A DNA stretch of 64,000 nt from Planctomycetota bacterium (GCA_964228555.1 CAXQZU010000022.1:15695-79694), one strand, 5' to 3'; numbered from the stretch's first letter, positions 40,302 through 64,000 are shown. Notes: a model not told the origin generated them from the sequence alone. A program made the numbers and translations.

Positions 40302-40353
40302 GGGGAAGTGCTCCGGAACGTGATGCGAGAGGGGTGGGGAAGGGTGGAGACGG

Positions 40354-42813: not shown

Positions 42814-43180
42814 GCCTTGCCGCTCCTTCGTGCCCGGGCCGCCCTCGCCCCGGGCATACGCCCCCCGCCAGCCGGCCAAGGCTGCTCGGAAGGCCTCCGG
42901 ACCCTGGGTCAACCCATTGGGTAAACCGGCACCCTACCCCCACGGAACGACGGGACGCAACGCCCAACCCAGCGCGGCCTTGCGCGTGGCCACGGCCCGG
43001 GCCGGCCCCAGGGCCGGCCTGCGGCCGGCGTGACGAGCCGGCTCGACCCTGGCAGCGAAGTTGACACCTGCTGGTAACGAGGTAGCGCCGCCCTCTCGGG
43101 TCCTTAGTCTCGGCTGCCGTGCTGCCCCTGCCTCCCCGGCCCGCAGGCGGCCTCGGGTCACCGCAGGCCGCGGCGGGCTC

Positions 43181-45232: not shown

Positions 45233-45301
45233 GAGGCAACCGTCGTGCCAGAGCGCGGCCCCCCGCGGCCTCCACGCCGCGCCCCGGGCGTCACCGAGGC
45301 G

Positions 45302-46054
45302 CTACGCCAGCCCCAGCGCCTGCGCCGCGGCGGCCAGCGCAGCCTGCTCCACGCGCAGGGCCGTGGCGCCCAGCTGCACCGTGGGGACACCCGCCTCCCG
45401 CGCCCGGGCCACCTCCGCGTCCACGAAGCCCCCCTCCGGCCCCACCAGCAGCCAGGGCAGGTCGGCCCCCGGTGCACGCTGCCCCAGCCAGCCGAGCAGT
45501 CGCGGCGCCTGCGGGTCGGGGTCGAGCAGCACGGCGCCGCAGGGGGGCAGGCCGTCCACCAGGGCCGACAGGTCGCGCACCGGCTCCACGCGCAGCATGC
45601 GTGCGCAGCCGTTGCCCTTGGCCGCCTCGCGCGCCACGCGCTCCCAGCGCGCGGCACGACGCGCCGGCAGGTCCTCGCGGCCCGCCGGCGTGCGTGCACA
45701 GCGCAACGGCACCCAGCGCTCCACGCCCAGCCAGGCCAGCCCTTCCACGAGGTCGTCGGCCCGCGAGGGCTCGGGGATGGAGGACGCCACCACCAGCGCC
45801 CGGGCCGGTCGCCGGTCGGGTGCCTCCGCCAGCACCTCGAGGCAGGCGGCGCGCGCGTCGGCCGTGCGCAGCCGCGCCCGGCGCGTGAGGCCGGTGCTGT
45901 CGAACAGCACCACCTCGTCACCCGCGGCCACCCGACGCACGCGCACGAGGTGCGCGGATTCCTCGGCGTCGAGCGTGACCTCGCCCTGCAGCGGCAGGTG
46001 CGCCACCCAGGCGCGCTCCGGGCCGCTGCCGCGGCTGGCGCCCGCGGTGGCCAT
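45302..46054 (-). CDS. rsmE: 16S rRNA (uracil1498-N3)-methyltransferase
   Basis: RsmE motifs (HLVRVRRVAAGDEVVLFD; LLVGPEGGF; GVPTVQLGATALRVEQAAL). ATG overlaps the upstream stop (ATGA). Confidence 0.82.
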   Translation of the reverse strand: MATAGASRGSGPERAWVAHLPLQGEVTLDAEESAHLVRVRRVAAGDEVVLFDSTGLTRRARLRTADARAACLEVLAEAPDRRPARALVVASSIPEPSRADDLVEGLAWLGVERWVPLRCARTPAGREDLPARRAARWERVAREAAKGNGCARMLRVEPVRDLSALVDGLPPCGAVLLDPDPQAPRLLGWLGQRAPGADLPWLLVGPEGGFVDAEVARAREAGVPTVQLGATALRVEQAALAAAAQALGLA

Positions 46055-49000: not shown

Positions 49001-50355
49001 CACGCCAGCGCCTCGCTGGCGCTGGCCAGCGCCAAGGCCTGCTCCTTGCGCTCCGCGGCGGCCTGCGCACGCTGCACCCAGGCCAGCGCACTGCCCGGCT
49101 GCTTCTCGAGCGTGTCAGCCCACACGGCCTCCGAGGAGGCGAACACCCCGGTACGCAGCAGGCCGCCCACGGCCAGCACGCCCACCACGGCCGCCAGCGC
49201 CGGCCCCCGCGCACGCCCCAGCCGGCCGAGCAGCCACGCCAGCGCCAGGTAGGCGCCCACCGCGCCCACCAGCAGGTAGCGCTCCGCCATCAGCGTGGTC
49301 GTGCGCGGCCAGAGGTTGTTGACGGGCGCAAGCCCCAGTCCCCAGAAGCCCAGCGCGAGCACGGCCAGCGCCCAGCCACGCCTGAGGGCCACGAGGAAGG
49401 CGGCCGCCAGCACCACCGCGAGGCCCGCGCCCAGCCACGCGCTGGCCGCCTGCCAGGTGCCGGCGGGGTCGATGTCGTGGTCCAGCGCCAGGTGCACGGG
49501 CGCGAGCAACGTGGCCACGTAGCGGGCGTGCACGCCGGCCATCGCCGCAGCCAGCGAGGCGGACGACACGCCGTGGTCCACCGCCCCCGGACCCGCCTGC
49601 GCTCCGATGAGGGCGTCCATGGCGATGCCGCCGCAGGCCACCAGCAGGCTGGGCAGCAGGCGCGCCAGCGCCCCCCGGGGCCCGCCACGGCGGCGCTCCA
49701 CCCACTCGTCGAGCACGAGCAGCCCCGCCCAGGTCCAGGTGGTGCCCTTGCACAGGCCCGCCAGCGCCAGCAGCAGGGGCGCCAGCAACGGCACGGCATC
49801 GCGCGAGCGCGCGCGCCGGTAGGCAAGGTGCGCCAGCACGGCCAGCAGCAACGAGAGGACATCCTTGCGTCCGCTGAGCCACGCGACGCTCTCGACATGG
49901 ACGGGATGCACGGCCAGCAGCAGGCCTGCGCCCAGCGCGAGCCACGCCGAGCGCGTGAGCGCCAGCAGCAGCCACGCCAGCAGCCCGCAGGCCGCCGCGA
50001 ACAGCAGCACGTTGACCACGTGCCCGAGGCCGGCCCCGTCCTCGTCCAGCAGCAGGTCCAGCTTGAGGCTCAGGAAGTAGACGGGCTTGTAGGCGTAGTA
50101 GGTGGTCGACGACAGGATCTGCGCCACGCTGCGCTCACGCGCCAGCGACACGACCTGCGGGTCGTCGTAGTTGAGCAGCGCATGCGAGGCCACCGAAGGC
50201 TGCAGGCCAGGCACGTAGCCCAGGTGCACCACCAGCGCGACCAACGCCACGGCCACGCAACCACGCAGCGCGCCCAGCGACTCCACCCAGCCGCCCGCAA
50301 GCCCGGGGGCGGGCGGCGCAGGGCGTTGCTCGGCGGCGGGACCAGGCGTGCTCAT
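46054..50355 (-). CDS. TMTC/PMT-like GT-C glycosyltransferase-fold polytopic membrane protein with a long C-terminal TPR array
   Basis: N-terminal multi-TM domain with the HPxHVESVAW(L/I)SxRKDVL signature (AVHPVHVESVAWLSGRKDVLSLLLAVLAHL). About 1000 aa of TPR repeats follow. ATG at 50355 overlaps the asnB-like stop. Confidence 0.8.
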   Translation of the reverse strand: MSTPGPAAEQRPAPPAPGLAGGWVESLGALRGCVAVALVALVVHLGYVPGLQPSVASHALLNYDDPQVVSLARERSVAQILSSTTYYAYKPVYFLSLKLDLLLDEDGAGLGHVVNVLLFAAACGLLAWLLLALTRSAWLALGAGLLLAVHPVHVESVAWLSGRKDVLSLLLAVLAHLAYRRARSRDAVPLLAPLLLALAGLCKGTTWTWAGLLVLDEWVERRRGGPRGALARLLPSLLVACGGIAMDALIGAQAGPGAVDHGVSSASLAAAMAGVHARYVATLLAPVHLALDHDIDPAGTWQAASAWLGAGLAVVLAAAFLVALRRGWALAVLALGFWGLGLAPVNNLWPRTTTLMAERYLLVGAVGAYLALAWLLGRLGRARGPALAAVVGVLAVGGLLRTGVFASSEAVWADTLEKQPGSALAWVQRAQAAAERKEQALALASASEALAWSQRRPRVSSARVRVQAHLVACGAHLTQGRLDDLLEAAGAAGSAAREAAGSGLARDDARRLESQAEVFRGQALEGREQPAGALEAYRRAANLDAQNASALYNLGTLLARQAAQSEGKGVEEALQCVQGARRLQPAWLDAGLQEAKLLAMAGRTQEAVGLYRDLESRHGAAPELLLARAQHFLVAGPAEAALRELERLRREHPGFPRAARLVADLYREDGQRLLEQARRDRTRSRELLGRALERAEQSVQAGAEHAEGWLLAGDVLFEQGKWLEARTRYQRALERDAGAAWVRSLVARSALLEAAWLARRDGDGALREGAARLVAEAVAGGASRLDLGMASLDTERALLAEVARRLDAPGPSRAPAVGVLLAAARVVVGDDPGAEEELAAVVAARPQEQGAPEVLDAALMLRGSARERAADMEGAARDYAFVARRRPDDPLPALREAQVQVRACAARQAIAAGWRPGPERVAEATALRAVPLAAGADEAAHAAWEAAGKVLDDTRAAQEADAALAAASARVVALADAHPGVLEAGLVAAEAEMRAQRWVEALRRLNTLRERFPGQPSVLRGQAAVYLNQYLVLRERVLVEEALAALQGALELDPRDARTAMDAAGARRIAGDMKGALAWAARARTLENLPGGPAARELAGLHAALGEQALEAGDREAALRAVAAAKEVEPALPAAWLLEGRVWLETPDAKGQRDAARAIGVLMKAKELDPASLEVDRLLARAYYQRGMPAAVGVRMVRLPPPPWEADARAFAALPGDQQQARRAAYVKAQAEAQQRVDALRAQALGDLQSSVRLDPAGEHAAQAQALLAGLTAASPEEEARRARDAMESAARAAGHLEVGEAVDAYLMAERALALDPEHRKASFFLVVAAYERLAAGGLSEDDRRSVTNRAFERLQALDALDRADEFPPRHLYRALLNEALFRRGGHEESREAALRAYGRYLERAGSRAGTDPGRLEMARRRRAELERLGAER

Positions 50356-52238
50356 GCGTCGCTCCGGGGCAGGGCCGCGCCCCTCGGGGGCAGCGCGTGC
50401 GCGTCGCCATCGAGGTAGAGCCGGGCCCACGTCTCGAGCACGACGCACGCGAACAGCCCACGATCATGGACCGGGCGCTGCTCGTCCAGCCGTGCCCGGC
50501 AGGCCGCCACGTCCCACCAGCCGCGCGCGGCGAAGCGCTCGTCGCCGAACAGCTGCTCCAGCCGTTCACGCCCCACGCCGCGCGCAGCCCGCTCGAAGGG
50601 CGTCGGGAAGCCTCGCTTGGCGCGGGCCGTGCGCACGCCTTCCGGGATGCGGCCGCGCAGGAGGGTGCGCAAGGCGCGCTTGCCCTCGCCATCGGGGCCC
50701 ACCACCTCCTCCTCCGGCAGCGCCAGCGCAGCGCCGGGCAGGCGGCCGAGGCAGAAGACGGGCCTCGCCTCCAGCCCGTGGGCTCCGGCCAGGCGGTCCT
50801 CCACCTGCAGCAGGGCCGCGAGCGTGCCCTCCACCTCCGCGCGCAGGGCCAGCGCCAGGCCCTGCTCGCCGGCAGGGCCCGCGCAAGCCAGCTCGGGCTC
50901 ACCCAGCGCTGCGCGGAAGGCCGGCGCAAGCAGGGGTGCCACGTCGCCGCTCCGGTCGTGCAGGGCCTGCACGCGCGCCGCGACGGTGGGCAGGCCCGCA
51001 ACGCGTGCCCCGAGGGCCTCGTAGCCCGCGGTCCAAGGCCCCGCACGGCCCAGGGCCAGCGCCACGCGTGCGTAGCCCCCCAGGAACTCGTCCCCGCCCG
51101 TGCCGGTGAGCAGCACGCGTCCACGCCCGCGCACGCGCGCCATCAAGCGCCACAGCGCGAGCGAGCCGGGACCGCCCAGCGGCAGCTCCAGCGCGCGCAC
51201 CACGGCCGGGAGGTCCTCCAGCAGGCCTGCGTCGTCGAGGTCCGCCACCTCGTGGCGCACGCCCGCCTGCGCCGCCACCTCCGCGGCCTCGCGCGACTCA
51301 TCCAGCGCGCCGCCCCACGGTGCGAAACGGCCCGTGAGGGCGTGCAGGTCGCTGCGGCCCGCGGCAGCCGCCACGGCCGCGCTGTCCAGGCCGCCCGAGA
51401 GCAGCAGCGTGACGCGCCCCGGGGCCTGCACGGCCTCGCGCGCAGTGGAGGCCAGCGCCGCAGCCAGCTCGCGCCTCGCGCGCGCAGCCTCGTGGCCCGG
51501 CAGGCGCACCACGAGCAGCGGGTCGGGCCCAGCCGGCACGGGCGCCTGCGGGCCCAGCGGGCCCAGTTCCTGGAGGTGGCGCGCGGGCACGCTGCGCACG
51601 CCTTGCCAGGGCAGGCGAGGGCCGGGCCGGTGCAGGTGCACGAGCGAGGCGAGGCCGCGCAGGTCGAGGCGGGCGGGCGCCACGCGCAACAGGGGCTCCA
51701 GCTCGGAGGCCCACCACGTGCCCAGGCCCTCGGGGTCCTCGCGCGTGTAGAGCGGCTTGATGCCGAAGCGATCGCGCAGCAGCCACGCCTTGCCCGCCGC
51801 GAGGTCGGCCACGCACAGCGCCCCCATGCCGCCCAGGACGGCCTCGCAGAGCGCACGGCCGCAGGGGCCCTCCCAGCCCTCGCCCCCCTCCAGCGCGGCC
51901 GAGGCCGCGCACAGCAGCAACGCCGTGTCGCCTTCCGCGGACGGGGGCGGCTCGACGCCGCGCCCGGACAGGGCGTCTCGCAGGGCCCGCCGCGCCGAGG
52001 CCAGCACCTCGCCATTCCAGGCCAGCGCCAGCCGGCCCGAGGGGGACACCCGCGGCTGCTGGGCCTCCAGAGGGCCCTGGATGGCAAGGCGCACGGCCGC
52101 GAGCACGACACGCGGCCCCTGCACCACGCCGCTGCCGTCCGGGCCGCGGTGCGCCAGCCGGGCAAGCAGGTCGGCGATGCGCGCGCTGCCAGCCGGCGGC
52201 CCGCCCGCGCGGGCGACAAACCCGACGAAGCCGCACAC
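50352..52238 (-). CDS. asparagine synthetase (glutamine-hydrolysing) family amidotransferase
   Basis: N-terminal Cys nucleophile (MCGFVGFV), Ntn glutaminase domain, and PP-loop SGGLDSAAVAA in the synthetase domain. Confidence 0.85.
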   Translation of the reverse strand: MCGFVGFVARAGGPPAGSARIADLLARLAHRGPDGSGVVQGPRVVLAAVRLAIQGPLEAQQPRVSPSGRLALAWNGEVLASARRALRDALSGRGVEPPPSAEGDTALLLCAASAALEGGEGWEGPCGRALCEAVLGGMGALCVADLAAGKAWLLRDRFGIKPLYTREDPEGLGTWWASELEPLLRVAPARLDLRGLASLVHLHRPGPRLPWQGVRSVPARHLQELGPLGPQAPVPAGPDPLLVVRLPGHEAARARRELAAALASTAREAVQAPGRVTLLLSGGLDSAAVAAAAGRSDLHALTGRFAPWGGALDESREAAEVAAQAGVRHEVADLDDAGLLEDLPAVVRALELPLGGPGSLALWRLMARVRGRGRVLLTGTGGDEFLGGYARVALALGRAGPWTAGYEALGARVAGLPTVAARVQALHDRSGDVAPLLAPAFRAALGEPELACAGPAGEQGLALALRAEVEGTLAALLQVEDRLAGAHGLEARPVFCLGRLPGAALALPEEEVVGPDGEGKRALRTLLRGRIPEGVRTARAKRGFPTPFERAARGVGRERLEQLFGDERFAARGWWDVAACRARLDEQRPVHDRGLFACVVLETWARLYLDGDAHALPPRGAALPRSDA

Positions 52239-52240
52239 GG

Positions 52241-52954
52241 CTAGGCCCTCGCCGCGACCGCAGGCTCGAGCACCGCGGTGTAGCCCAGCGCCACCGGATC
52301 GAAGGCGAGCGAGCGCACCACCCCGTGCGCTGCCAGCACGGCCCGCAAGCGTGCCGCGTCGAAGCGCTGCACGTGGCCCGGCGCCGGCTCCAGCGAGAGT
52401 CCCCGCACCAGCCGGCCCAGCCCGGTCAGGCGCAACAGCTTCTTGGCACGCAGTATGGGCCCGTCGGCGGGCACGTACACCACGACACAGCCGCCCGGGG
52501 CCAGCAGGGGCAGCAGCCCGGCCAGGGCCGCGCCCGGATCCTCCAGGTGCTCCAGCAGCGCGCTGAGCACGATCACGTCGGCGCCCTCGGGGCCCAGGTG
52601 CGCACGCAGGCCCTGCGGCGCCAGCGCGTCGCCCGGCGCGAGGACCACGCCGGGTCGACCCACGAGGGGGCTCTGCGCGAGCATCGCGGGATCGAGGTCC
52701 GAGAGCACCAGCCGCTCGACGCCCTCCGCGTAGGCCTCGGCGATCCAGCCATCCTCGCAGCCGAGGTCCAGCACGGTGCGCGGCCGGCGCGCGCGCACCT
52801 GCCGGGCGACCAGCTCACGCCGCCGCCGCTCGATGGCACGCACGATCCACCCCCCGCGCGCCCGCATCTCGGCCATCGAGTGCGTCTGGTTGAGGGCCTG
52901 GTTGCGCGCGACGCGCTCGGCCGGCAACGGCAGGGACGGGGCAGGCAGGGGCAT
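52241..52954 (-). CDS. class I SAM-dependent methyltransferase
   Basis: Motif I (VLDLGCEDGW) and downstream motifs (VIVLSALLEHLEDP). ATG verified at 52954. Confidence 0.78.
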   Translation of the reverse strand: MPLPAPSLPLPAERVARNQALNQTHSMAEMRARGGWIVRAIERRRRELVARQVRARRPRTVLDLGCEDGWIAEAYAEGVERLVLSDLDPAMLAQSPLVGRPGVVLAPGDALAPQGLRAHLGPEGADVIVLSALLEHLEDPGAALAGLLPLLAPGGCVVVYVPADGPILRAKKLLRLTGLGRLVRGLSLEPAPGHVQRFDAARLRAVLAAHGVVRSLAFDPVALGYTAVLEPAVAARA

Positions 52955-52991
52955 CGTGCCCCCAGCCTCGCGCCCCCCGTTCACGGCGCCG

Positions 52992-53750
52992 TCACCCGCG
53001 CGGGGAGGGCCTTGCACCCCCCTCGGCGAGGCCCTGCCGGGGTGGTCGCAGGCGCAGCACCAGGAGCCGGCCCAGCGCGGCGGCGTGCCCCAGCAGGGCT
53101 CGGCCCACGCGCATCTTGCTGCGGCCCTCGGTGCGCGGCCGCAGCGCGGCGGGCACTTCTTCCACGCGCAGGCCGGCCAGCAGGGCACGCCCCAGCATCT
53201 CGGCGGCAGCCGGGAAGCCGCGCGCAGCAGGCAGGCAGCAGGACCGCGCCCGCGGCCCGTAGGCCCGGAAGGCGCAGGTGAAGGTGCGCACCCCGCGGGC
53301 GCGGCGACCCAGCACGGTGCGGTAGCAGGCAGCCGCCGCGCGCGTCAGTGCCCGGCGCCAGGCCGGCACGCCCTCCATGCTCCCTGCGGCGGCCAGCGGC
53401 GAGGCCGTGGCCACGTCCGCGCCGGCGCACACGGCCTCCACCAGCCGCTGGACGTGCTCGGGCGCGTAGCCGCGGTCGGCGTCATAGACGACGACCACCT
53501 CGCAGCGTGCGGCCTGCAGGCCAGAGCGCATCGCGGCCCCCACGCCCCGGTTGCGTGGGTGGGTGACGATGCGCACGCGCGCATCCGCCCGTGCCAGCGC
53601 GTCCAGCAGGCGCGCCGTGCCGTCGGTGGAACCGTCGTCCACGCCCACGATCTCGCGTGCCGGCAACGCGGCCAGCACCGGCTGCAGGCCCGGGAGCGCC
53701 TCTTCCTCCTGGTAGCAGGGCACCACCAGCGTGTAGTCGTGCGCGGCCAC
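52992..53750 (-). CDS. GT2-family polyprenyl-phosphate sugar synthase-like glycosyltransferase (DPM1/ArnC-like)
   Basis: YTLVVPCYQEE ... GVDDGSTDGT ... VVVYDADRGYAPE (DxD context) typical of GT-A family 2. GTG start; coordinates follow the ORF track. Confidence 0.85.
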   Translation of the reverse strand: MAAHDYTLVVPCYQEEEALPGLQPVLAALPAREIVGVDDGSTDGTARLLDALARADARVRIVTHPRNRGVGAAMRSGLQAARCEVVVVYDADRGYAPEHVQRLVEAVCAGADVATASPLAAAGSMEGVPAWRRALTRAAAACYRTVLGRRARGVRTFTCAFRAYGPRARSCCLPAARGFPAAAEMLGRALLAGLRVEEVPAALRPRTEGRSKMRVGRALLGHAAALGRLLVLRLRPPRQGLAEGGARPSPRG

Positions 53751-53799
53751 CCGCGCACCCTACACCGGGCGCGGCCGCCTCCGCGGCAGCCTGCGCGTG

Positions 53800-54675
53800 C
53801 TAGCGCATGCCCAGCGCCACCTGCACGGCCTGCAGGTCGTCCCACACGGGGCGCTTGGCCTCGGGATTGCGCAGCAGGTAGGCCGGGTGGAAGGTCGGCA
53901 TCACGCGCCAGCCCTCCGGCGTGCGCATCCAGCTGCCCCGCAGGCTGGTGATGCCCCGCTCCGTGCCCAGCAAGGCGCGCGTGGCGTGATTGCCCAGCGC
54001 GAGGATGGGCGGCGGCCCCAGCAAGGCCAGCTGCTCCTTCATCCAGGGCGTGCAGGCTGCCACCTCCTGGGGCATGGGCGGACGGTTGGCTGGCGGGCGG
54101 CACTTGAGGACGTTGAGGATGAACACGTCGTGGTCGCGCGAGAGCCCGATGGCGGACAGCATGCGCGTGAGCAGCTGGCCGGCCGGCCCCACGAAAGGCA
54201 CCCCCTGTGCGTCCTCTTCCTCCCCCGGCGCCTCGCCCACGACCACCAGGCGGGGGGTGCGGCTGCCCGCCCCGAACACGGCCTGGGTCCGCGAGGCGCA
54301 CAGGCCGCAGCGCTGGCACCCGGCCACCTCGGCCTCCAGCGGACCCCAACGGGCAGGGTCCGGCGGACCGGCGGGGACGGCCCCGGGCGACACGACGACG
54401 GGCCCGGGGAGGCCGCTCTCCGGACGCCGCCCCGTGGCAGGCAGCGCGGGCCCTAAGCCACGCGGGCCCGTTCGCGGGCCGCTGCCGCCCCCTTGCCCCG
54501 GCCCACGGGCCTGCTGCGTGGCACGGCCCTGTCCCATGGCGCCGTGGGCCCCCGGCGGCACGGCCACCGTCGGCTGCGGCTCCTCGGCCGGCAAGTAGCG
54601 GGCTCCGGCGCCCCGTACCCACTCGACGTAGAAGAGGGCCTCGTCGAGCAGCGGATCAGGTGCGCCCGGCATCAC
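53800..54675 (-). CDS. family-4 (Fe-S, UdgA-type) uracil-DNA glycosylase with a Gly/Pro-rich N-terminal extension
   Basis: GCQRCGLC ... GEAPGEEEDAQGVPFVGPAG ... ILNVLKCRPPANR ... HPAYLLRN motifs. The true start may lie downstream of 54675. Confidence 0.8.
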   Translation of the reverse strand: MMPGAPDPLLDEALFYVEWVRGAGARYLPAEEPQPTVAVPPGAHGAMGQGRATQQARGPGQGGGSGPRTGPRGLGPALPATGRRPESGLPGPVVVSPGAVPAGPPDPARWGPLEAEVAGCQRCGLCASRTQAVFGAGSRTPRLVVVGEAPGEEEDAQGVPFVGPAGQLLTRMLSAIGLSRDHDVFILNVLKCRPPANRPPMPQEVAACTPWMKEQLALLGPPPILALGNHATRALLGTERGITSLRGSWMRTPEGWRVMPTFHPAYLLRNPEAKRPVWDDLQAVQVALGMR

Positions 54676-54733
54676 GGTGGCAGGCTAGCCCGGGCAACCG
54701 ACGGACCCTGGACAGGGCGGGCCGCCGCCTCGC

Positions 54734-54754
54734 ATGCGAACAAGATGCGAACAA
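54734..54754. promoter_or_regulatory. tandem ATGCGAACAA direct repeat containing GAAC-N7-GAAC (reverse complement GTTCGCATCTTGTTCGC); LexA-box-like, in the udg/secretin divergent region
   Basis: GCATGCGAACAAGATGCGAACAAATGG at 54732-54758, in a locally AT-richer intergenic stretch. Shares GTTCGCA-N4-GTTCG with the site at 18292-18306. About 60 nt upstream of the udg start on the minus strand. Confidence 0.5.
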
Positions 54755-54940
54755 ATGGCTGCGGGCCAGCAGCAAAAAGCCGGGATCGGGTGACGCGAGC
54801 GTGACACGCAGGCCGGACTCTTCCCTCGTCCAGGGTCCATGGGCAGGCCTGCATCGCGGCGCGCGCGCGCCGTCCCGACGCACGAGGGTTCGTCGGGGGC
54901 ATGCAGGCGTGCTCGTGTTCCCGCATGGAGCACACCGCGG

Positions 54941-57760
54941 ATGTCGAGCATCACCTCGTTCACGAACCTCCCTGCGTCGCGCCGTGTCCTTGGCATCGCG
55001 CTCTGCGTGCTGCTGGCCACGCCGCTGGCCGCGTGCCGGACCCACCGCCTCGGCGTGGAGCCCTACGGCCCCGCCGGCGAGGCCGGTGACGCGCCGGTCG
55101 CGCCCGCGCAGCCGGGCCCCGACACCGTGGTGGCCAGCGCTCAGCCCGAGGAGCAGCCCGCGGCTCCTGCGGCCGAGCCGCCGGCTGAGCCTGCGCCCGC
55201 CCCGGCGCCCGAGAAGACGCCCGAGCAGCAGCTGGAGGAGGCGCGTCGCGCCGCGCAGATCGCCAGCGAGCAGACCAAGTTCCTGGTCGGCCAGCAGCTG
55301 GCCAAGGCCCGCGAGGCGATGAGCGCCGGCAACATCGAGGCCGCCCGCGAGGCCTACGGCAAGGCGCTGGAGCTGGATCCGGGCAACAGCGAGGCCCTCG
55401 AGGGCTGGACCAACCTGACCTCGAACCGCCCCAGCTCCGTGGAGGGCTACCTCAAGGAGCAGCGTGCGCTCCAGCAGGTGCGCCGCCAGGAGGCCGTGGC
55501 GCGCGTGCGCAACCACCTCGAGCTGGGCCGCTCGCTCGAGTCGCGCGAGGAGTTTGCCGGCGCGGTGCAGGAGTACAACCGCGCGCTGGCGATCGTGAGC
55601 TGGTACGACGACACCAGCGACTTCGGCACCTCCGCCGCCGCGCTGCGTGACCTGATCGACAACGCCCAGCACAAGTCGGCCCTGGCCGAGCGCACCCGTC
55701 GCGAGGAGGCCCTGCGTGCCGCCCAGGTCGAGCGCGAGCGCGACCTGATGCGCACCCGCGAGCAGGCGCTGGGCAAGATCCAGGCCTACTTCGAGCAGGC
55801 CAACGTGGCCTTCCGCGAGGGCCGCTACGAGGCAGCCATCGACTACGCGCGCCAGGTGCTGCGCATCGACCCCACCAACCGCAGCGCCACGGGCATGATC
55901 AACGTCGCGCACGACGCCAAGCACATGGCCGCGCTCGACACGCACAAGCGCAACTTCGACGACCAGTGGAAGCGCGTCATGCAGCAGCTCGAGTTCGACA
56001 TGCTGCCGCAGACCAAGGTCGTGGAGTGGTCCGAGGACTGGCTGGACGGCATCGCCCAGCGCAAGCCCCGCGTGGTGGGCGACGCGGTGCCCACCGACGA
56101 GCTGGGCACCAACGGCGCCATCTACGCCGCGCTGAAGAGCAAGCGCGTGACGAACCTGCAGTGGGGTGACGACACCACGCTGCCCATGGCCGTGAGCTAC
56201 CTGCGCACGATGACCGGCCTGAACTTCTACATCACGCCCAAGGCGCAGACCGAGAAGGAGGAGGCCCGCGTGCCCCTCACGATCGACGACTACGCCGTGA
56301 GCGACATCCTCGACATCATGACCGAGCAGAACGGCCTCAAGTGGGAGGTGCGTGACGGCCTGGTGCGCATCACCACCGCCGAGGAGATCACCGGCTCGTA
56401 CATCCGCCGCTTCTTCGACATCAACGACCTGCAGGTCAAGATCCAGTCGCACCTGGGCCAGGAGATCAACCTGTTCCCCAGCAACTTCACGCCGCCCGAG
56501 CCGCCCGAGCTGGCCGAGCCCGTGGAGATGATCGCCCCCGAGCAGCTGCAGGAGCTGATCAAGGAGACGATCGGCGGGCCTGGCGCGTGGGAGGACCCCG
56601 CCATCCTCGAGGCCCGCAAGGGCCTGCTGATCGCCGTGAACACCCCCGAGGTGCTGGCGGACGTCGAGAAGCTGCTCAACGAGCTGCGCGCCAACACGGG
56701 CTTGCTCGTGAACCTCGAGGTGCGCTTCCTGACGGCCGAGGACAACTTCCTGCGCGACGTCGGCATCGACGTGCGCGGCCTGGGCCTGACCAACACGACG
56801 GCCGGCGTGCCCGGGCTGGGCACCTCGGTGACCCAGAACGACGTGTTCTTCGGCAACCCCTCCGCCCCCACGGGCTTCAGCAGCGCGCTGGGCCTGCAGC
56901 CCGAGCCCTCCTCGGTGGGCACGGCAGCGGACGCGGGCCTCTTCTACAACGACGGTGCGGACGGCCAGTACTCGGCACGCATGGAGAACCTCTTCGACGT
57001 GCTGCTGGGCAACCCGGAGGTCCTCACGGGCTCGGGCGGCCTCTCGTTCCAGCACACCTTCCTCGACGACACCGAGATGGAGGTGATCCTGCGCGCCGTC
57101 CAGAAGAGCGAGCGCATCCAGAACATCACCAGCCCGCGCATCACGGTCTACAACACCCAGCGCGCCAACGTGCAGGTGCTCAACCAGGTCTCGTACGTGC
57201 AGGACTACGAGGTCGAGATCGCGCAGGCGTCGAACATCGCCAACCCCGTGATCCAGACCATCCTCGACGGCATCGTGCTGGACGTGCGCCCCACGGTCTC
57301 GCAGAACCTGAAGTTCGTGACGCTCGAGCTGCGTCCCACGGTGGCCGTGCTCACCCGCCCGATCGCGACGTTCACCACGTCGCTGGCCTCGGGCCCGGTG
57401 ACGGCCAACGCCCCCATCACGATCCAGCTGCCCGAGCTGCGCGTGAGCCGCGTGCGCACGACGGTGACGATGCCCGACCGCGCCACCCTGCTGCTGGGCG
57501 GCCTGAAGTACTACGAGCAGGAGACGATGACCAGCACGACGCCCATCCTGGGCGACATCCCGATCCTGTCGCTGCTGTTCTCGCGCAAGGGCCACTACGT
57601 CAACCGCCGCAACCTGCTGATCCTCATCACGGCCGAGATCGTGCCGCTCGAGGAGTACGCGCCCAAGGGCGAGCTCGACGTGCAGCCCCTGCCGCCCGAG
57701 GCGTTCACGTGGCGCCCGGTGGCCGAGCCGGTCGCGGCGCCTGCGCCGGCCTGCAAGTAG
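54941..57760 (+). CDS. secretin (T2SS/T4P/T3SS family) with an N-terminal TPR-lipoprotein (pilotin-like) domain
   Basis: Lipoprotein signal (VLGIALCVLLATPLAAC). Pro/Ala-rich linker, three or more TPR-like motifs (AYGKALELDPGNSEAL; AIDYARQVLRIDPTN), secretin N domains (LKWEVRDGLVRITT; LLIAVNTPEVLADVEKLLNELRA) and the C-terminal secretin core (LLVNLEVRFLTAE ... TTPILGDIPILSLLFSRKG ... NLLILITAEIV). Confidence 0.9.
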   Translation: MSSITSFTNLPASRRVLGIALCVLLATPLAACRTHRLGVEPYGPAGEAGDAPVAPAQPGPDTVVASAQPEEQPAAPAAEPPAEPAPAPAPEKTPEQQLEEARRAAQIASEQTKFLVGQQLAKAREAMSAGNIEAAREAYGKALELDPGNSEALEGWTNLTSNRPSSVEGYLKEQRALQQVRRQEAVARVRNHLELGRSLESREEFAGAVQEYNRALAIVSWYDDTSDFGTSAAALRDLIDNAQHKSALAERTRREEALRAAQVERERDLMRTREQALGKIQAYFEQANVAFREGRYEAAIDYARQVLRIDPTNRSATGMINVAHDAKHMAALDTHKRNFDDQWKRVMQQLEFDMLPQTKVVEWSEDWLDGIAQRKPRVVGDAVPTDELGTNGAIYAALKSKRVTNLQWGDDTTLPMAVSYLRTMTGLNFYITPKAQTEKEEARVPLTIDDYAVSDILDIMTEQNGLKWEVRDGLVRITTAEEITGSYIRRFFDINDLQVKIQSHLGQEINLFPSNFTPPEPPELAEPVEMIAPEQLQELIKETIGGPGAWEDPAILEARKGLLIAVNTPEVLADVEKLLNELRANTGLLVNLEVRFLTAEDNFLRDVGIDVRGLGLTNTTAGVPGLGTSVTQNDVFFGNPSAPTGFSSALGLQPEPSSVGTAADAGLFYNDGADGQYSARMENLFDVLLGNPEVLTGSGGLSFQHTFLDDTEMEVILRAVQKSERIQNITSPRITVYNTQRANVQVLNQVSYVQDYEVEIAQASNIANPVIQTILDGIVLDVRPTVSQNLKFVTLELRPTVAVLTRPIATFTTSLASGPVTANAPITIQLPELRVSRVRTTVTMPDRATLLLGGLKYYEQETMTSTTPILGDIPILSLLFSRKGHYVNRRNLLILITAEIVPLEEYAPKGELDVQPLPPEAFTWRPVAEPVAAPAPACK

Positions 57761-57802
57761 GCCGCGGCACCCCGCGCGCACGGCGCGGGCCTGCCCACCC
57801 CA

Positions 57803-57840
57803 CGAGCCCCGGGGCACGCCCCCGGGGCTCGTCTCGTTGG
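57803..57840 (+). terminator. rho-independent-terminator-like hairpin downstream of the secretin gene
   Basis: Perfect 12-bp GC stem CGAGCCCCGGGG-cacgc-CCCCGGGGCTCG followed by TCTCGTTGG, 43 nt after the secretin stop. Confidence 0.6.
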
Positions 57841-58023
57841 TGGCCGCTCGCATGGTGCGCAGCGCGGCCGAGGGCTGGCGCCGAGGTCGCACGGGCGGGC
57901 CGCGTTGCCCGCCGCTCCCCCCATCCGTAGAATGCGCCCGCCTTGGCCCGCACGCGCGAGCCAGCGCGGGACGGTGCAGCCCCCGGGGCCCGCACCGCCC
58001 TCCCCTGCCCCTGGAGCCCATCC

Positions 58024-61000
58024 ATGGTGTTCACGCGCCGCTTCCTGCGCCTCTCCGGCGTCCTGCTGCTGCCCGCCCTGCTGCTGGCGGGCGCACCGCG
58101 CGCCGAGGCCGGTGCGGACGACTTCGAGTTCGGCCAGAAGCTGGCCCAGGCGCGCTTCTTCAAGCTGGCCCGCCGCGTCTACGAGGGCATGCTCACGGCG
58201 CAGGGCAGCAGCGACACGCAGAAGGACCTCGCGCGCTACGGGCTCGCCACGCTCGGCCACCAGGAGGCGCTCAGCGCCGGCGCCCGCAGCGAGGTGCCCT
58301 TCGCCGAGGTGATCGCGCTCTACAACACGGCCGCCGAGCAGGTGGACGCCTTCGCCCAGAAGAACCCCAACCACCCCAAGGCACGCGACGCGCGGCTGCT
58401 GAGCGGCAAGATCCGCCTCGACGTCGTCAACTGGTGCCGCGACCTGCTGGACCTGCCTGAGATGCTGGCGTCGCGCAAGGCCTCGCCCGGCGAGGTGGCC
58501 TCGGCCGCGCGCAAGGCCGTCGACGACGCCACCTCGCACTTCGAGGCCCTCAAGGGCTCGGGCGGCGACCTGGCCGAGCTGGCGGGGTACTACTGGACCA
58601 CGGCCCAGTACTACAAGGCCCTGACGCTGGACGGCGGCAGCGCAGCCCAGATGGCCGCCTTGCGCGACGCCGAGACCAAGCTGGACGACTACATCAGCGA
58701 GAACGACGGCAAGCTGCTGGCCGTGTTCGCGCAGGACATGCTGGGCCTGACGCTGGCCGAGCGCGCGAAGCACACGCCCGGCGACGAGGAGCGCGCGCAG
58801 CTCTACAGCAAGGCGCTGACCTGGTTCCAGACCTGCATCGACCAGGAGTACATGGACGCGGACACGCTCACGGTCATCACCAATGGCTACCAGCACTACG
58901 GCAAGGCCTGCCTCGAGGCGGGCCGCATCGGCACGCGCAACTTCTGGCGCGAGGGCGTCAACGTGCTGGGCGAGATGCTGGCCAAGGTGCCGACCTCGGG
59001 CAAGACCGGCAACGGCATCCGCGCCATGCTGGTGCTGGGCGACCTGCAGAAGGCGCTGGGCGACTCCTCGGCCGCGCTGAACACGTACAAGGACGCATCG
59101 GACCGGGCCAGCCAGATCGACCAGCGCGGCCTGGCAGCAGAGGCCGACAAGCGCGTGCGCGAGGCCACGCGCGGCGGCGCCGTGCAGATCACCGACATCA
59201 ACATCGCGCGCAAGGTGGCGCAGAGCAACCTCGACGAGAAGCGCTGGGAAGAGGCGATCTCGGGCTTCCAGGACGTGATCGCGCTGGCGCCCAGCACGCC
59301 GCAGGCCTTCGTCGAGATGGTGTGGCCGTCGTGGGAGAAGATTGCCACGGCCTACCGCGAGCTGGGCGATCCGCTGTCGGCCGCGATGGCCTACGAGGCC
59401 ATCCACGAGGCATGGCTGGCCGGCCTCATCTCGCACAAGAAGGGTGACGAGAACGACAACAACATGCGCCGCGCCGGCGGCAATCGCAAGGCGGGCATCC
59501 GCCTGCTGGACGAGCTGGCCACGAAGACCGGATCCAAGGTGTTCCGCGAGGCCATGAAGCGCGCCGACGCAGGCTTTGCCACGGACTTCCCCGACCACCC
59601 GGACAGCAAGGACAGCGTGCTGCGCGTGGCGCTGGACAAGTACAAGGCGGCGCGCGACGCCAAGCGGGCGAAGGCGGCCGGCTGGCGCGCACAGTTCGAG
59701 GAGGCGCGCAAGCTGTTCGAGGCCGAGGCCCGCAACGCCAAGAGCCAGAACCAGGACGCGGCGGCCTCCTACGTGATCCAGATCGACTACCAGATGGTCT
59801 ACGACCCCGGCACGGTGGCGCCCCCGGCCGAGGGCCGCAAGGCGGCCGAGCGCGGGCTGGCCTTCTCCAGCGAGATGCTTGCCTTCTGGGCCTCGGAGGC
59901 CGGCCAGCAGAAGATCAAGGACTTCCCCACGCTGGCCGGCAAGCGCACCTCGGCCGTGAAGGACGTGCGCCTGCGCCGTGGTGACCTGCTCAAGGCGCTG
60001 GACCGCTGGGACGAGGTGATCTCCGAGATGACCGCGATGCGCTCCGAGGTGGGCGACGGCGAGGAGGGGGACGACGCGCAGGCCCTCGTGGTGGAGGCCC
60101 ACGTCGAGAAGGGCAGCACGGCTGCCGCCGACGAGGCGCTCAAGGTGCTGCTCAAGCGCGGCAAGCACCCGGCCATCCCGGCGCTGGTGGGCAAGGTGGC
60201 TGGCACCTTCGACGCCCAGTTCCGCGAGCTGACCAAGCAGTTCAACACGAAGAACGAGGAGCTCAACGGCACCCGCGAGGACCGCAGCACGGGCATCAAC
60301 GCGCGCATGCGCACGACCGAGGCCCGCTACAACGACCTGCTGGCGCAGAAGGTGAGCCGCCAGCAGGTGGTGGACGTGCACCGCCGCGACATCGAGGCGT
60401 GGCGCAAGGACCCCGAGACCCGCAAGGGCCTGACCGAGAAGACGGTGAAGGAGCTCGAGGAGAAGACCATCCCCGAGCTCGACGCCCTGGTCGCGAGCCT
60501 GACGAGCGAGATCGGCTCGCTGGACACGCAGATGCAGGCCCTGCGCACGCGTTCGGAAGCCCTGCAGGGCGAGATCCGCGACATCACCCTCGCGCAGTAC
60601 GCGCCGCTCAAGGAGGCGGTCAAGCGCTTCGACCTGGGCCTGCAGAGCGCGCTGGACGCCGGCGTGACGCCCAAGGCCGCCGAGCTGGGCAACATCGCCG
60701 CCCGCTGGTACGCCGCGGCCCGCAACGCCAAGGGCGAGGAGGGAGACTGGCAGAAGGCCCGCCTGCGCTACGAGCAGTTCATGGACCTGGCCGAGGTGAA
60801 GGCGCTGCCTGACACCGACGCGAGCAAGCGGGGCGCGCAGGCCAAGCTGGGGCGCATCTACTCGCACTTCTCCGAGGTGGAGAAGGATGCCGGCCGCCGC
60901 GCCGAGACCGTGCGCAAGGCCATCCTGCTGCTGGAGCAGACGCTGGCAGCCCGGCCGGAGAACAACGAGATCCTGCTGGGCTTGCTGGGCGGGCGCTACG

Positions 61001-61734
61001 GCGTGGTGGTGTGGGAGAACCCGGTCGAACGGGGCCCGGTCTACCGCTTCATCGTGCCCAAGGCGGCGGACCTGGCGGCCTTCAAGGCAGCCGTGGCCCG
61101 CCTCGGCACGCCGGAGAGCCCGGTTCCGCTGCCGCGCGTGGGCGACGAGGCCCGCATGGTGGCCTATCGACGGGCCCTGGCCACGTGGAAGGACAGCGTG
61201 CCCACGATGGAGAGTGCCATGCAGGAGCTGCTGCTCAAGGACTTGCGCGGCTCGGGCCTGGATGCCGCCACGTGGCGCGAGCTGGGCAACACGGACCGCG
61301 AGTACCGCACCTCGCTGGCCTCGGCCTACTCCGAGAGCGGCGAGGACGCCGACCTCGGCAAGGGGGACGTGGTGCTGGCCACGCTGCTGCAGGGCCCGCT
61401 GTCCGTCGAGGACTTCAGCGACGAGTACTGGGATGTCTCGACCCTCGTGCTGCGCCACTGGGCCAACCACAGCGAGCGCCTCTCGGCCGCCGGTGGGGTG
61501 GCCGCCAAGGCCAGCGAGCTGCGCAAGCGCGCGAGGCAGTTCATCACGGGCCGCACCTCGGTGGCCAGCGTGCCGCTGGCCAACGGCGTGCGCGAGGAGT
61601 GGCAGCGCCTGGTCGAGCGCTTCAACCGCGGCCTGCGAGCCGAGGGCGCGCCCGAGATCAGCGTCAGCCTCGAGCGCATGGCCCCCCCGGCCCCGGCGGC
61701 ACCTGCCGGCACGCAGGAAGGGACTGGCAAGTGA
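58024..61734 (+). CDS. very large secreted alpha-helical/TPR-like hypothetical protein
   Basis: 1236 aa. Signal peptide MVFTRRFLRLSGVLLLPALLLAGAPRAEA. Long coiled-coil/TPR-like composition. ATG verified at 58024. Confidence 0.75.
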   Translation: MVFTRRFLRLSGVLLLPALLLAGAPRAEAGADDFEFGQKLAQARFFKLARRVYEGMLTAQGSSDTQKDLARYGLATLGHQEALSAGARSEVPFAEVIALYNTAAEQVDAFAQKNPNHPKARDARLLSGKIRLDVVNWCRDLLDLPEMLASRKASPGEVASAARKAVDDATSHFEALKGSGGDLAELAGYYWTTAQYYKALTLDGGSAAQMAALRDAETKLDDYISENDGKLLAVFAQDMLGLTLAERAKHTPGDEERAQLYSKALTWFQTCIDQEYMDADTLTVITNGYQHYGKACLEAGRIGTRNFWREGVNVLGEMLAKVPTSGKTGNGIRAMLVLGDLQKALGDSSAALNTYKDASDRASQIDQRGLAAEADKRVREATRGGAVQITDINIARKVAQSNLDEKRWEEAISGFQDVIALAPSTPQAFVEMVWPSWEKIATAYRELGDPLSAAMAYEAIHEAWLAGLISHKKGDENDNNMRRAGGNRKAGIRLLDELATKTGSKVFREAMKRADAGFATDFPDHPDSKDSVLRVALDKYKAARDAKRAKAAGWRAQFEEARKLFEAEARNAKSQNQDAAASYVIQIDYQMVYDPGTVAPPAEGRKAAERGLAFSSEMLAFWASEAGQQKIKDFPTLAGKRTSAVKDVRLRRGDLLKALDRWDEVISEMTAMRSEVGDGEEGDDAQALVVEAHVEKGSTAAADEALKVLLKRGKHPAIPALVGKVAGTFDAQFRELTKQFNTKNEELNGTREDRSTGINARMRTTEARYNDLLAQKVSRQQVVDVHRRDIEAWRKDPETRKGLTEKTVKELEEKTIPELDALVASLTSEIGSLDTQMQALRTRSEALQGEIRDITLAQYAPLKEAVKRFDLGLQSALDAGVTPKAAELGNIAARWYAAARNAKGEEGDWQKARLRYEQFMDLAEVKALPDTDASKRGAQAKLGRIYSHFSEVEKDAGRRAETVRKAILLLEQTLAARPENNEILLGLLGGRYGVVVWENPVERGPVYRFIVPKAADLAAFKAAVARLGTPESPVPLPRVGDEARMVAYRRALATWKDSVPTMESAMQELLLKDLRGSGLDAATWRELGNTDREYRTSLASAYSESGEDADLGKGDVVLATLLQGPLSVEDFSDEYWDVSTLVLRHWANHSERLSAAGGVAAKASELRKRARQFITGRTSVASVPLANGVREEWQRLVERFNRGLRAEGAPEISVSLERMAPPAPAAPAGTQEGTGK

Positions 61735-61763
61735 GCACGATCGCCCGCACGGAGGACTTGAGC

Positions 61764-63128
61764 ATGCACCGTCCCGATTCCCGCCCGCTGCTGCGTGGCA
61801 CGCTGTGCTCGCTGGCCCTCGGGGCCGTGCTGCTGGCGGCCCTGCCGGCGCACGCCGACGACACGATCACGGCGCTCAACCCGGACACCTGCGAGCGCTA
61901 CACGATCAAGTGCACGGAGGTGCTGCCGGAGACGGCCACCGAGGTGCGCTACAAGCTGGGCAAGGCCGAGAAGAGCGTGCCCCTGCCGCTGGTGGTCGAG
62001 ATCGAACGCAGCACCGGCGGCAAGGAGCGAGCCATCCTCGAGGCGGCCCTGCTGGAGCTGCGGCGCGGCAACTTCACCGAGGCCCGCACCTCGTTGCGCG
62101 ACCTGGCCGCGGGCGGCTTCAAGATGGAGGACGGCGTGCAGAAGTTCACGCCCTTCCCCAAGGGCGGCAGCGGCGCCAAGGGCAAGCGCGTGGCGTGGAC
62201 GCAGGAGTACGCGCACTACTGGTACGCCGTGGCGCTGGTGCGCGAGGGCGAGAAGTCGGGCAACGGCAAGCTGCTCGAGGAAGCCCTGCTGGTGCTGGAT
62301 GACGTGCCGGCGCCCGGCGACGGCAAGGAGACCACGGGCGGCTTCCTCGGCCGCTTCAAGGGTGGCAACAGCCGCTGGATCGCGGACGCCACGCTGCTCA
62401 AGGCGGAGGCCCTCCTGGGGCTCAAGCGCTGGGACGAGGCCGCGGCCGCCTTCAACGAGCTGTCCAACCTCGGCATGAGCGCCGGCTACTCGCCGCGCTG
62501 GGTGTTCGAGGGCAAGCGCGGCCCGGGCCGCATTGCCGAGGCGCAGGGCGACACCGACACGGCCATCCGCGCCTACGAGGGCGCGCCGCAGGCCCTGGAC
62601 TCGTTGCTCAAGGACCTGCCCAGCCGCTGCCTGCGGCTGGAGGCGGGCCGCTGGTACAGCGTGCTGCGCATGGAAGCCGCCAAGGTGCTGCTGCGCAAGG
62701 CGGAGGCCAGCGGCAAGCCCGCTGACTTCATGCCTGTGCGCAACTACCTGGAGGGCAGCACGCCCGAGGCGCTCCAGCGCAAGGTGTCGGGCAAGCCGCC
62801 GGAGCAAGCCGAGGCCTTGCTCGCAGGCTCGCGGGCCCCGGAGGTGCGCGCCGTGCTGGCCAGCGGCCTGGGCCAGGCCTACCTGGCCGACAAGCGGTTC
62901 GACGACGCCATCCTGTCGCTCTCGGCACTGACGGTGCGCGGGGGCGCAGGCAGCACGGGCGCTGCCCGCGACCTCGTGGCGGGTGCCCTCTACTACCTGG
63001 CCAAGGCCTGCGAGGGTGCGATCCAAGGAGCCTCGGGGGAGGCCAAGGCCACCTACGAGGCCATGCGCTCGGGCGCTCTCAAGCGGCTGAAGACCGACTT
63101 CGCCGACAGCCTCTACGCCACCAAGTAG
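61764..63128 (+). CDS. secreted hypothetical protein
   Basis: 454 aa. GGAGG 9 nt upstream. Signal peptide MHRPDSRPLLRGTLCSLALGAVLLAALPAHA. Follows the 1236-aa gene by 29 nt. Confidence 0.72.
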   Translation: MHRPDSRPLLRGTLCSLALGAVLLAALPAHADDTITALNPDTCERYTIKCTEVLPETATEVRYKLGKAEKSVPLPLVVEIERSTGGKERAILEAALLELRRGNFTEARTSLRDLAAGGFKMEDGVQKFTPFPKGGSGAKGKRVAWTQEYAHYWYAVALVREGEKSGNGKLLEEALLVLDDVPAPGDGKETTGGFLGRFKGGNSRWIADATLLKAEALLGLKRWDEAAAAFNELSNLGMSAGYSPRWVFEGKRGPGRIAEAQGDTDTAIRAYEGAPQALDSLLKDLPSRCLRLEAGRWYSVLRMEAAKVLLRKAEASGKPADFMPVRNYLEGSTPEALQRKVSGKPPEQAEALLAGSRAPEVRAVLASGLGQAYLADKRFDDAILSLSALTVRGGAGSTGAARDLVAGALYYLAKACEGAIQGASGEAKATYEAMRSGALKRLKTDFADSLYATK

Positions 63129-63412
63129 CCCTTCCCAGGGCCTTGGGCGGCGTGCCGTGGACGGCGCCCGCGGCCATGCAGGGACTTACGCCCGCGCCCT
63201 GGCGGGGCGCGGGGACCCCGCATGCCGGGGCCGGGCAGGGCGCCGGGGTCCGCGTGCAGGTCCTCGCGCCAGCCACCCGGGCCGCGCCGGGCGAGCCGTC
63301 CGTCGGCCAGCGCCGGAAGCCTGTTGGCATGCATCCCCCCCTTCGGTAGATTCCCCCCCTTGTCCGGCCTGCCGGAGCCACGGCAAGGCCCCCCCTGGAG
63401 CCCCGTCCCGTC

Positions 63413-64000
63413 ATGAAGTCCAAGATCCTCGTCGGCGCCGTGCTGGCCGCTGCCCTCCTCGTGGTCCTGCCCGATGCAGCCTGGGCAGCCGACGTGAAGA
63501 ACATCGGCAACGAGACCTTCTTCGAGTCGGTCATCAACTGGGGTGGCTGGGTCGGCTGGCTCATCATCGCCCTGTCCGTGTGGACCGTGGCCATGATCAT
63601 CGAGATGTCGGTGAGCATGCGCCGCGACAAGATCTGCGCGCCGGAGCTGATCGACGAGATCAACGCCCTGATGCAGGAGGACGAGTACCAGGAGGCGCTC
63701 GAGCTGTGCGAGGCGCAGCCCAACTTCGTGACGAACAGCCTCGGTGCGGCCCTGCCGCGCCTGAGCGAGGGCTGGGGCGAGATGAAGTCGGCGATGGAGA
63801 ACGCGGCCAACTACGAGGCCCTCAAGCTGCAGCAGAAGGTGGGCTGGCTGCTCTTCATCTCGAACCTCGCCCCCCTGCTGGGCCTGTTCGGCACGGTGAC
63901 GGGCATGATCGAGGCCTTCAAGGAGATCGTGCGCCTCGGTGCCAAGGTGACGCCCACCGACCTGGCCGCCGGCATCTCGGCCGCGCTCATCACCACCTTC
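63413..64000 (+). CDS. MotA/TolQ/ExbB-family proton-channel protein (partial, 3' end beyond the window)
   Basis: LGLFGTVTGMIEAF ... DLAAGISAALITTF matches the TolQ/ExbB TM2-TM3 signature. Unusually preceded by a signal-peptide-like N-terminus (MKSKILVGAVLAAALLVVLPDAAWA). Confidence 0.8.
   Translation, partial: MKSKILVGAVLAAALLVVLPDAAWAADVKNIGNETFFESVINWGGWVGWLIIALSVWTVAMIIEMSVSMRRDKICAPELIDEINALMQEDEYQEALELCEAQPNFVTNSLGAALPRLSEGWGEMKSAMENAANYEALKLQQKVGWLLFISNLAPLLGLFGTVTGMIEAFKEIVRLGAKVTPTDLAAGISAALITTF

Follow-up and report, generated by a model that had tools for sequence, protein, structure and literature searches.

A gene cluster of uncultured Planctomycetota that sets an ExbB/ExbD-type motor and two large exported TPR proteins between two secretins

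Proton-driven 5:2 motors, among them MotAB, ExbBD, TolQR, AglRQS, GldLM and ZorAB, increasingly look like a general power source for processes at the outer membrane, and each new output module found for them has revealed new biology. Secretins are regarded as channels that are served by cytoplasmic ATPases and filaments. Planctomycetes possess a wide periplasm and have been reported to take up large polymers, an ability for which, to our knowledge, the molecular basis is not known. Here we describe a locus in which genes for a motor of the 5:2 type and for secretins stand side by side. It was found in a stretch of DNA of 64,000 nucleotides (nt) from a Planctomycetota bacterium (GCA_964228555.1, CAXQZU010000022.1:15695-79694), called the window in the following, with positions counted from its first letter. 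A secretin gene (secretin-1) is directly followed there by genes for an exported protein of 1236 amino acids (aa), an exported protein of 454 aa and a protein of the MotA/TolQ/ExbB family, which we call ExbB. These three genes are the centre of a cluster of eight to nine genes, specific to a clade of uncultured Planctomycetota, and the cluster is, among the envelope systems driven by proton motors, a variant not described before; a literature search on secretins with ExbB/ExbD, Planctomycetes or crateriform structures returned no description of it.

The closest described architecture is that of the Agl-Glt/Nfs systems of Myxococcus. The Agl-Glt core consists of aglRQS together with gltD, gltE, gltG and gltC (PMC3169522), and its large periplasmic tetratricopeptide repeat (TPR) proteins GltD and GltE, lipoproteins of 1197 and 455 mature residues that both begin with a mature Cys1 (PMC11761067), work with the TolQR-type motor (PMC3169522, PMC11761067). 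This TPR pair is believed to transmit force through the periplasm to a complex in the outer membrane. The cluster described here likewise has one TolQ-like and two TolR-like genes and encodes exported TPR proteins of about 1200 and 450 aa, a resemblance of architecture only. A second related arrangement is known from bacteria of the Planctomycetes-Verrucomicrobia-Chlamydiae (PVC) group, in which one TPR-encoding gene, one gene resembling tolQ and two heterologous tolR-like genes lie upstream of membrane-tethered vWA force transducers (Mol Biol Evol 2025, PMC12204202). The 454-aa TPR gene, exbB and two unlike exbD genes of our cluster correspond to such a module. Unlike the PVC modules, no vWA family and no transmembrane (TM) helix with the SHLS motif is present nearby, and the cluster has in addition the 1236-aa solenoid, an enzyme of the sulfatase fold and the pair of secretins.

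The order of these genes is conserved. Secretin-1, the 1236-aa gene, the 454-aa gene, exbB, two or three exbD genes, the enzyme gene and a second secretin gene (secretin-2) follow one another in all 11 of the 11 distinct loci that we reached through homologues of the 1236-aa protein, the 454-aa protein or ExbB, where the contig was long enough. The part of the cluster beyond the window end was read on a reference contig reached via the 454-aa protein (GCA_046089665.1 JBJSYI010000011.1, 239 kb, a metagenome-assembled genome [MAG] labelled "Planctomycetia bacterium"), which is 99.4% identical to window positions 51765-64000 over 12,239 nt. Across loci, identity falls to 24-29% for the 1236-aa protein, 36-38% for the 454-aa protein and 53-65% for ExbB; roughly, conservation is highest in ExbB and the two secretins, intermediate in the enzyme and the ExbDs, and lowest in the two large proteins. 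Both large proteins are encoded by single-copy genes with a fixed place between the secretin and the motor genes in all loci, and these genes adjoin the secretin in every relative with enough upstream sequence, whereas an earlier note on this DNA, made from the sequence of the window, had named a lack of such conserved adjacency as a finding that would overturn its interpretation. Pattern-based scans, which are insensitive, yielded two loci in GTDB genomes and four in metagenomes, one of the latter on a known contig.

The three genes are real (Table 1), and the earlier note's observation is confirmed with small corrections. At a G+C content of about 74%, as in the window, long open reading frames (ORFs) occur in many frames, so that G+C by codon position is needed to recognize the coding one; the plus-strand genes have 0.95-0.97 at third positions (GC3) and 0.40-0.51 at second positions (GC2). 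Two antisense ORFs on the minus strand, of 1291 aa (57595-61470) and 566 aa (61326-63026), were rejected as high-GC artefacts, their GC3 of 0.71-0.76 being wrong for this genome. The tandem of the 1236-aa and 454-aa genes had been noted for its 29-nt spacing and good ribosome-binding site (GGAGGA, 7 nt before the second ATG), and ORFs, GC3 and homologues all agree with it; homologues were found for all three products. The exbB gene runs out of the window end, and its full product of 239 aa is known from near-identical contigs. Gene calls made independently on these public contigs give the same three products of 1236, 454 and 239 aa. The secretin gene directly upstream was likewise recovered by its Pfam match.

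Table 1. Coordinates of the cluster genes, of other genes and of promoter-like sites; positions preceded by an L label refer to related loci, all others to the window
Feature	Position	Strand	Remarks
Secretin-1 gene	54941..57760	+	PF00263 E=1e-25, TPR_1/2 matches; 939 aa on the 99.4%-identical contig
1236-aa gene	58024..61734	+	ATG 58024, enclosing ORF 57943-61734; GC3 0.96; homologues; AlphaFold2
454-aa gene	61764..63128	+	ATG 61764, enclosing ORF 61011-63128
ExbB/TolQ-type gene	63413..64000	+	ATG start (MKSKILVG...); 196 of 239 codons inside the window
Third ExbD	L004 7607-8263; L013 14034-14630; L014 16608-17135; L015 12108-12683; L016 12453-12989		duplicate of ExbD2
Sulfatase-fold enzyme, 604 aa	L011 13797-15611		about 1.4-3.2 kb past the window end; alkaline-phosphatase superfamily
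Sigma-70-like promoter match TTGCCC-17-TAGAAT	57905..57933	+	before the 1236-aa gene; weak, pattern only
Sigma-70-like promoter match TTGGCA-17-TAGATT	63324..63352	+	before exbB; pattern only
Uracil-DNA-glycosylase-family (UDG) gene	53800-54684	-	adjoins secretin-1
T2SSG pseudopilin domain	ORF 24471-27731	-
Prepilin N-methylation motif	31024-32571	-
PilM-like protein	38346-40493	-
Double-FHA protein	40354-42933	-
Sigma-54 activator with FHA and GAF	43181-45301	-

The third gene in the row had been assigned to the MotA/TolQ/ExbB family, and the full-length protein belongs to it by a wide margin (PF01618, 90.4 bits against a cutoff of 22.9, E=1e-25). ExbB is composed of a signal peptide, a periplasmic tail of about 20 residues and three TM helices; the motifs GLFGTVTG and ALITT of TM2 and TM3, with their Thr residues, align to TolQ. 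Its nearest solved relatives are TolQ and then ExbB, TolQ being slightly closer, and 914 relatives were found at E<=1e-10, the top 120 of them with at least 58% identity. On the reference contig exbB is followed by the genes for ExbD1 (175 aa) and ExbD2 (192 aa); the likeness between these two is confined to the TM segment with the essential Asp (NMTPMID). Some relatives carry a third ExbD-like gene, which we considered as a TonB-like transducer and rejected, as it is a tandem copy of ExbD2; the lineage of the window is without it and has only two ExbD genes, as have the loci L006, L022 and L024.

This motor shares with the Ton system the ExbB/ExbD family and the TM Asp of ExbD, and the idea of proton-driven gating of an outer-membrane channel would be common to both. 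Unlike Ton, the cluster has two or three different ExbDs and neither TonB nor a TonB-dependent transporter, and its proteins score far below the cutoffs of the specific models (NCBIfam exbB, 49.7 bits against 206.2; the ExbD model PRK11267, 19.3 bits against 216, with a match to ExbD2 only). The likeness to Tol-Pal lies in the slightly greater proximity of ExbB to TolQ and in the presence of TPR proteins beside the motor, as in the case of CpoB. Unlike Tol-Pal, there is no TolA, TolB or Pal nearby, the NCBIfam tolQ and tolR equivalogs are not reached (76.8 bits against 221 for ExbB; 23.9 and 26.4 bits against 127.3 for the ExbD proteins), and the TPR proteins have 4-10 times the size of CpoB. 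The Pfam families of genes called within +/-10 kb, in the loci L011, L013, L015 and L024, list no TonB (TonB_C) and no TonB-dependent receptor, and those on the reference contig list no TolA, TolB, Pal or vWA protein either. An ordinary exbD-tonB set with its receptor had been named in the earlier note as another finding that would overturn its interpretation; what follows exbB is instead two to three ExbDs, the sulfatase-fold enzyme and the second secretin, and because TonB and a TonB-dependent receptor are absent near exbB, the objection of an ordinary Ton system fails. Moreover, none of the PADLOC defence models, which include systems with MotAB-like parts such as Zorya, matched any of six cluster proteins.

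All three products are predicted to enter the Sec pathway. Each of the three families shows a variable leader with a basic and a hydrophobic region (n and h) that ends in AxA and is followed by conserved mature sequence. In the 1236-aa protein the signal peptide comprises residues 1-29, with a predicted cleavage site AEA/GADDFEFGQK; the predicted sites are AHA/DD in the 454-aa protein (ARA/DEIV in relatives) and AWA/AD in ExbB, and the AxA sites and their conservation suggest that all three leaders are cleaved. The large proteins had been called secreted: the conserved signal peptides support export of the Sec type, which need not lead beyond the periplasm, so that "exported by Sec" is the better wording. 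For ExbB the signal peptide itself held, a leader with an AxA-like site and TM1 being found in 110 of the 118 close full-length homologues. It had also been thought unusual for the family, which it is not, because the signal sequence of Serratia ExbB is removed, as seen by mass spectrometry, and "long", signal-bearing ExbBs are found in many Alpha- and Gammaproteobacteria (PMC9008036). With the leader cleaved, our ExbB would have the usual N-out, three-helix topology of ExbB/TolQ; with the leader retained, a fourth helix would give it a MotA-like topology.

The two large proteins are, according to confident structural models, TPR/solenoid scaffolds rather than enzymes or typical cargo. The 1236-aa protein had been described as helical and TPR-like, and its AlphaFold2 model (residues 30-1205, mean pLDDT 90.7) is an all-alpha TPR/solenoid with a long coiled-coil hairpin; the pTM of 0.58 is in line with a long flexible solenoid. 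In the 454-aa protein (mean pLDDT 90.3) the signal peptide is followed by a small beta domain, at about residues 33-81 and 118-129, and then by a TPR-like helical domain. Foldseek matched the large proteins to generic TPR scaffolds only, long ones in the case of the 1236-aa protein (Rap, LGN, BamD, PilF, AlgK and YbgF; Ctr9, Ski3 and IFT-A). One low match of the 1236-aa model is PDB 9hmf, a scaffold from the flagellar motor of Campylobacter, in which a large TPR protein of the periplasm positions a MotA/MotB-type 5:2 stator; at a TM score of 0.17-0.25 the likeness is that of the generic TPR fold, and there is no flagellar context here. Pfam and NCBIfam gave TPR matches only, all of them sub-threshold (tol_pal_ybgF, for instance, 20.9 bits over 31 residues of the 1236-aa protein, against a cutoff of 90.1), so that the remark that nothing is recognizable in these proteins beyond their topology was fair at the level of sequence.

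Both families appear to be planctomycetal. The 1236-aa family is rare: a word search with the protein retrieved seven relatives, and a profile scan of 1.84 billion representatives, with the alignment trimmed to residues 30-1205, retrieved 159 at E<=1e-3, of which 48 reached E<=1e-30. About 25 of the matches are full-length (1220-1280 aa), and a second tier of 950-1080 aa covers the N-terminal 60%. Family members with an informative source name are all from Planctomycetota, an assignment that rests on few NCBI MAG labels; the weakest matches to the profile are generic TPR proteins, and the named ones among these belong to several other phyla. For the 454-aa protein 32 relatives were found, of which the organism-named ones are assigned to Planctomycetia or Planctomycetota. 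Across 33 members of the 1236-aa family the coiled-coil hairpin is the least conserved region and GADDFEFGQKLA (residues 30-41, window 58111-58146), the first 12 residues after the predicted cleavage site, is the most conserved 12-residue stretch. The TolA box at the N-terminus of TolB and the TonB box of transporters are docking epitopes, and by analogy the conserved mature N-terminus of the 1236-aa protein is a candidate for an epitope of this kind.

These results bear on the option, raised in the earlier note, of a cargo role for the two large proteins, which would then leave through the adjacent secretin for the surface or the medium. Such a role would suit their Sec-type signal peptides, the position of their genes directly after a secretin gene and the pseudopilin-like gene in the window. 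Neither the models nor the structure searches revealed an enzyme or adhesin domain in either protein, and the scaffold folds, the conserved mature N-terminus, which suggests a docking role, and the fixed one-to-one link of single-copy genes with the motor genes all speak for a structural part; we consider export as cargo very improbable.

Another possibility is that the cluster is a diverged Agl-Glt/Nfs core (AglR, AglQ/AglS, GltD and GltE) that moves a surface polymer or an adhesin, with secretins in place of the GltA/B/H/K barrels that are the outer-membrane partners in Agl-Glt. The gene complement and the sizes of the two TPR proteins, very near to those of GltD and GltE (PMC11761067), speak for this idea. 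At the level of HMMER profiles, in a library without names, no homology to GltD/GltE was detected: the search gave the family itself and generic TPR proteins, and full-length profile matches among the 1.84 billion representatives remain within the 1236-aa family, whose named members are from Planctomycetota. Furthermore, the cluster is without GltC and without a transducer of the GltG/GltJ type, a TM protein with a TonB-like C-terminal domain; unlike the lipoproteins GltD and GltE, both proteins here have AxA sites and no lipobox; and Planctomycetes, the taxon concerned here, are unmentioned by Luciano et al. Common descent from such a core is in our view improbable. By analogy the cluster may work like Agl-Glt; it is not classifiable as a member of that group.

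The two secretins are related lipoproteins that enclose the other genes. Secretin-1 (939 aa) has a lipobox (LAAC), a Pro/Ala-rich linker, TPRs, a region with weak STN/N0 likeness and, at the C-terminus, the secretin domain; secretin-2 (917 aa), which lies beyond the window, is also a TPR-secretin lipoprotein, with the lipobox ASGC, a Pro/Ala-rich linker and a TPR N-domain. Both exceed the PF00263 cutoff of 27.5 bits (90.6 and 84.4 bits, respectively), and the named secretin equivalogs are not reached (bits/cutoff: Amuc_1098 110/750, MshL 101/250, GspD 72/351, PilQ 69/284). The two are 34% identical along their whole length, and since each paralogue has its own orthologues in relatives, the duplication is old. 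The best partial NCBIfam matches, Amuc_1098 and MshL, relate them to TPR-bearing secretin systems (the Amuc_1098 family, MshL/MshN, PilQ with PilF/PilW), in which TPR proteins accompany the secretin as they do here. Those systems are without an ExbB/ExbD motor, whereas here two paralogous secretins bracket one.

All these elements can be combined in a model in which the motor, the two periplasmic scaffolds and the two secretins form one energised, envelope-spanning machine, a reading that we consider about equally likely to be right or wrong. In the cytoplasmic membrane, ExbB, probably pentameric, would assemble with one pair of ExbD1 and ExbD2 into a 5:2 motor driven by protons. The two large proteins would serve as adaptors or scaffolds in the periplasm, which is wide in planctomycetes; they would span it and join the periplasmic domains of the ExbDs to the TPR N-domains of secretin-1, secretin-2 or both, so that proton flow would gate or power the passage of macromolecules through the secretin channel, while the 604-aa enzyme might modify the substrate or the envelope. 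That the products act as one complex, its stoichiometry and contacts, and the direction and identity of the substrate, we infer from gene order, families and folds. An energised trans-envelope sub-complex had been one of the options of the earlier note, and the two to three ExbDs, the two secretins, the absence of a TonB set and the conserved order support it, the single complex being the conjectural part; taken as a whole, the earlier interpretation is partly supported.

The main rival explanation is that the secretins are neighbours of the motor and not its partners. The 454-aa TPR protein, ExbB and ExbD1/ExbD2, perhaps with the 1236-aa protein, would then be a self-contained Tol/Ton-like motor, the secretins would belong to a type IV pilus or to a type II secretion filament whose genes lie at another place, and the adjacency of secretin and motor genes would reflect general synteny in the clade. 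Several observations point this way or weigh against a single machine. Unrelated flanking genes are also syntenic in the clade, with variable orientation: UDG and methyltransferase genes upstream, and HAD, RidA and Opp genes downstream, the latter three convergent after secretin-2 on the reference contig. The UDG gene adjoins secretin-1 in every relative with enough upstream sequence, and it was found at the equivalent place in L006, L010, L013, L014, L015, L016, L023 and L024. Synteny thus extends beyond the putative machine, which makes the conserved order weaker functional evidence here than it usually is. A TonB- or TolA-like force transducer was not found in the lineage of the window, and PVC bacteria do possess TPR, tolQ-like and double tolR-like modules without secretins (PMC12204202). 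Type-IV-filament-like genes at 24-45 kb on the minus strand of the window, encoding the pseudopilin, prepilin-motif, PilM-like, FHA and sigma-54 activator proteins of Table 1, may be what the secretins really work with; neither an ATPase nor a platform of the PilB/PilC type was seen in the window.

Gene spacing contributes to the same doubt. Gaps of 134-286 nt interrupt the cluster (284 nt before exbB), which does not make a single tight operon, and the secretin genes are set apart from their neighbours by gaps of 264 and 210 nt; in the window, 263 nt precede the 1236-aa gene. A consensus scan for sigma-70-like sites found two (Table 1), with 0.2 expected in shuffled sequence. These promoter-like matches together with the gaps indicate that there are probably several transcription units. 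In addition, CCCTGGAGCC stands just before the start codons of the 1236-aa gene (58009-58018) and of exbB (63393-63402); four copies occur in the window, against 0.7 expected, a result at pattern level only. Rfam searches over 54-64 kb returned only chance-level miRNA matches.

On the other side, both secretin paralogues stand at the ends of the motor genes in every locus, even where the identity of the 1236-aa protein is about 25%; a Tol/Ton system would be incomplete, as TolA, TolB, Pal and TonB are absent from the neighbourhood; and the filament genes, on the opposite strand, lie at a distance of 11-30 kb. We judge the explanation by mere neighbourhood somewhat unlikely, and we return to the single energised machine as the preferred reading of the cluster.

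The enzyme of the cluster, assigned to the periplasm, has an N-terminal hydrophobic leader and a helical C-terminal tail. A true formylglycine sulfatase was considered and rejected, the Cys/Ser formylglycine precursor being replaced by Thr: where sulfatases have C/S-x-P-x-R the protein reads T-L-P-A-H, and Thr85, Pro87 and His89 are invariant in seven orthologues. The metal-site residues D42/T43 and DHGE are conserved. More likely identities are a hydrolase or transferase of phospho-esters or a hydrolase of non-standard type, which would act on the substrate or on the envelope.

Upstream of the cluster, the window also encodes a protein of 1464 aa (46054-50448, minus strand) that has many TPRs and an N-terminal region which is hydrophobic and apparently multi-pass. 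The genes that separate it from the cluster encode an asparagine synthase, a methyltransferase and a GT2 glycosyltransferase, and in L013 a similar large TPR gene stands at the corresponding place.

A more far-reaching form of the proposed machine, which we put forward tentatively, is a "powered secretin" specific to Planctomycetota: it would be the first case of a 5:2 motor of the ExbB/ExbD type acting on secretins, and not on TonB-dependent barrels, Pal or the Glt barrels. The two paralogous TPR-secretins would be gated or driven through a periplasmic solenoid of about 1700 residues, with GxDDFEFGQ, the invariant mature N-terminus of the 1236-aa protein, as the motor-docking box. If this is true, transport across the outer membrane would be energised in a new manner, by a proton motor that serves a secretin, and the machine could move whole macromolecules across the planctomycete outer membrane or export a surface polymer. 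The locus, single-copy and conserved in its clade, offers a concrete candidate on which this can be tested, and it adds two new families of large periplasmic scaffolds.

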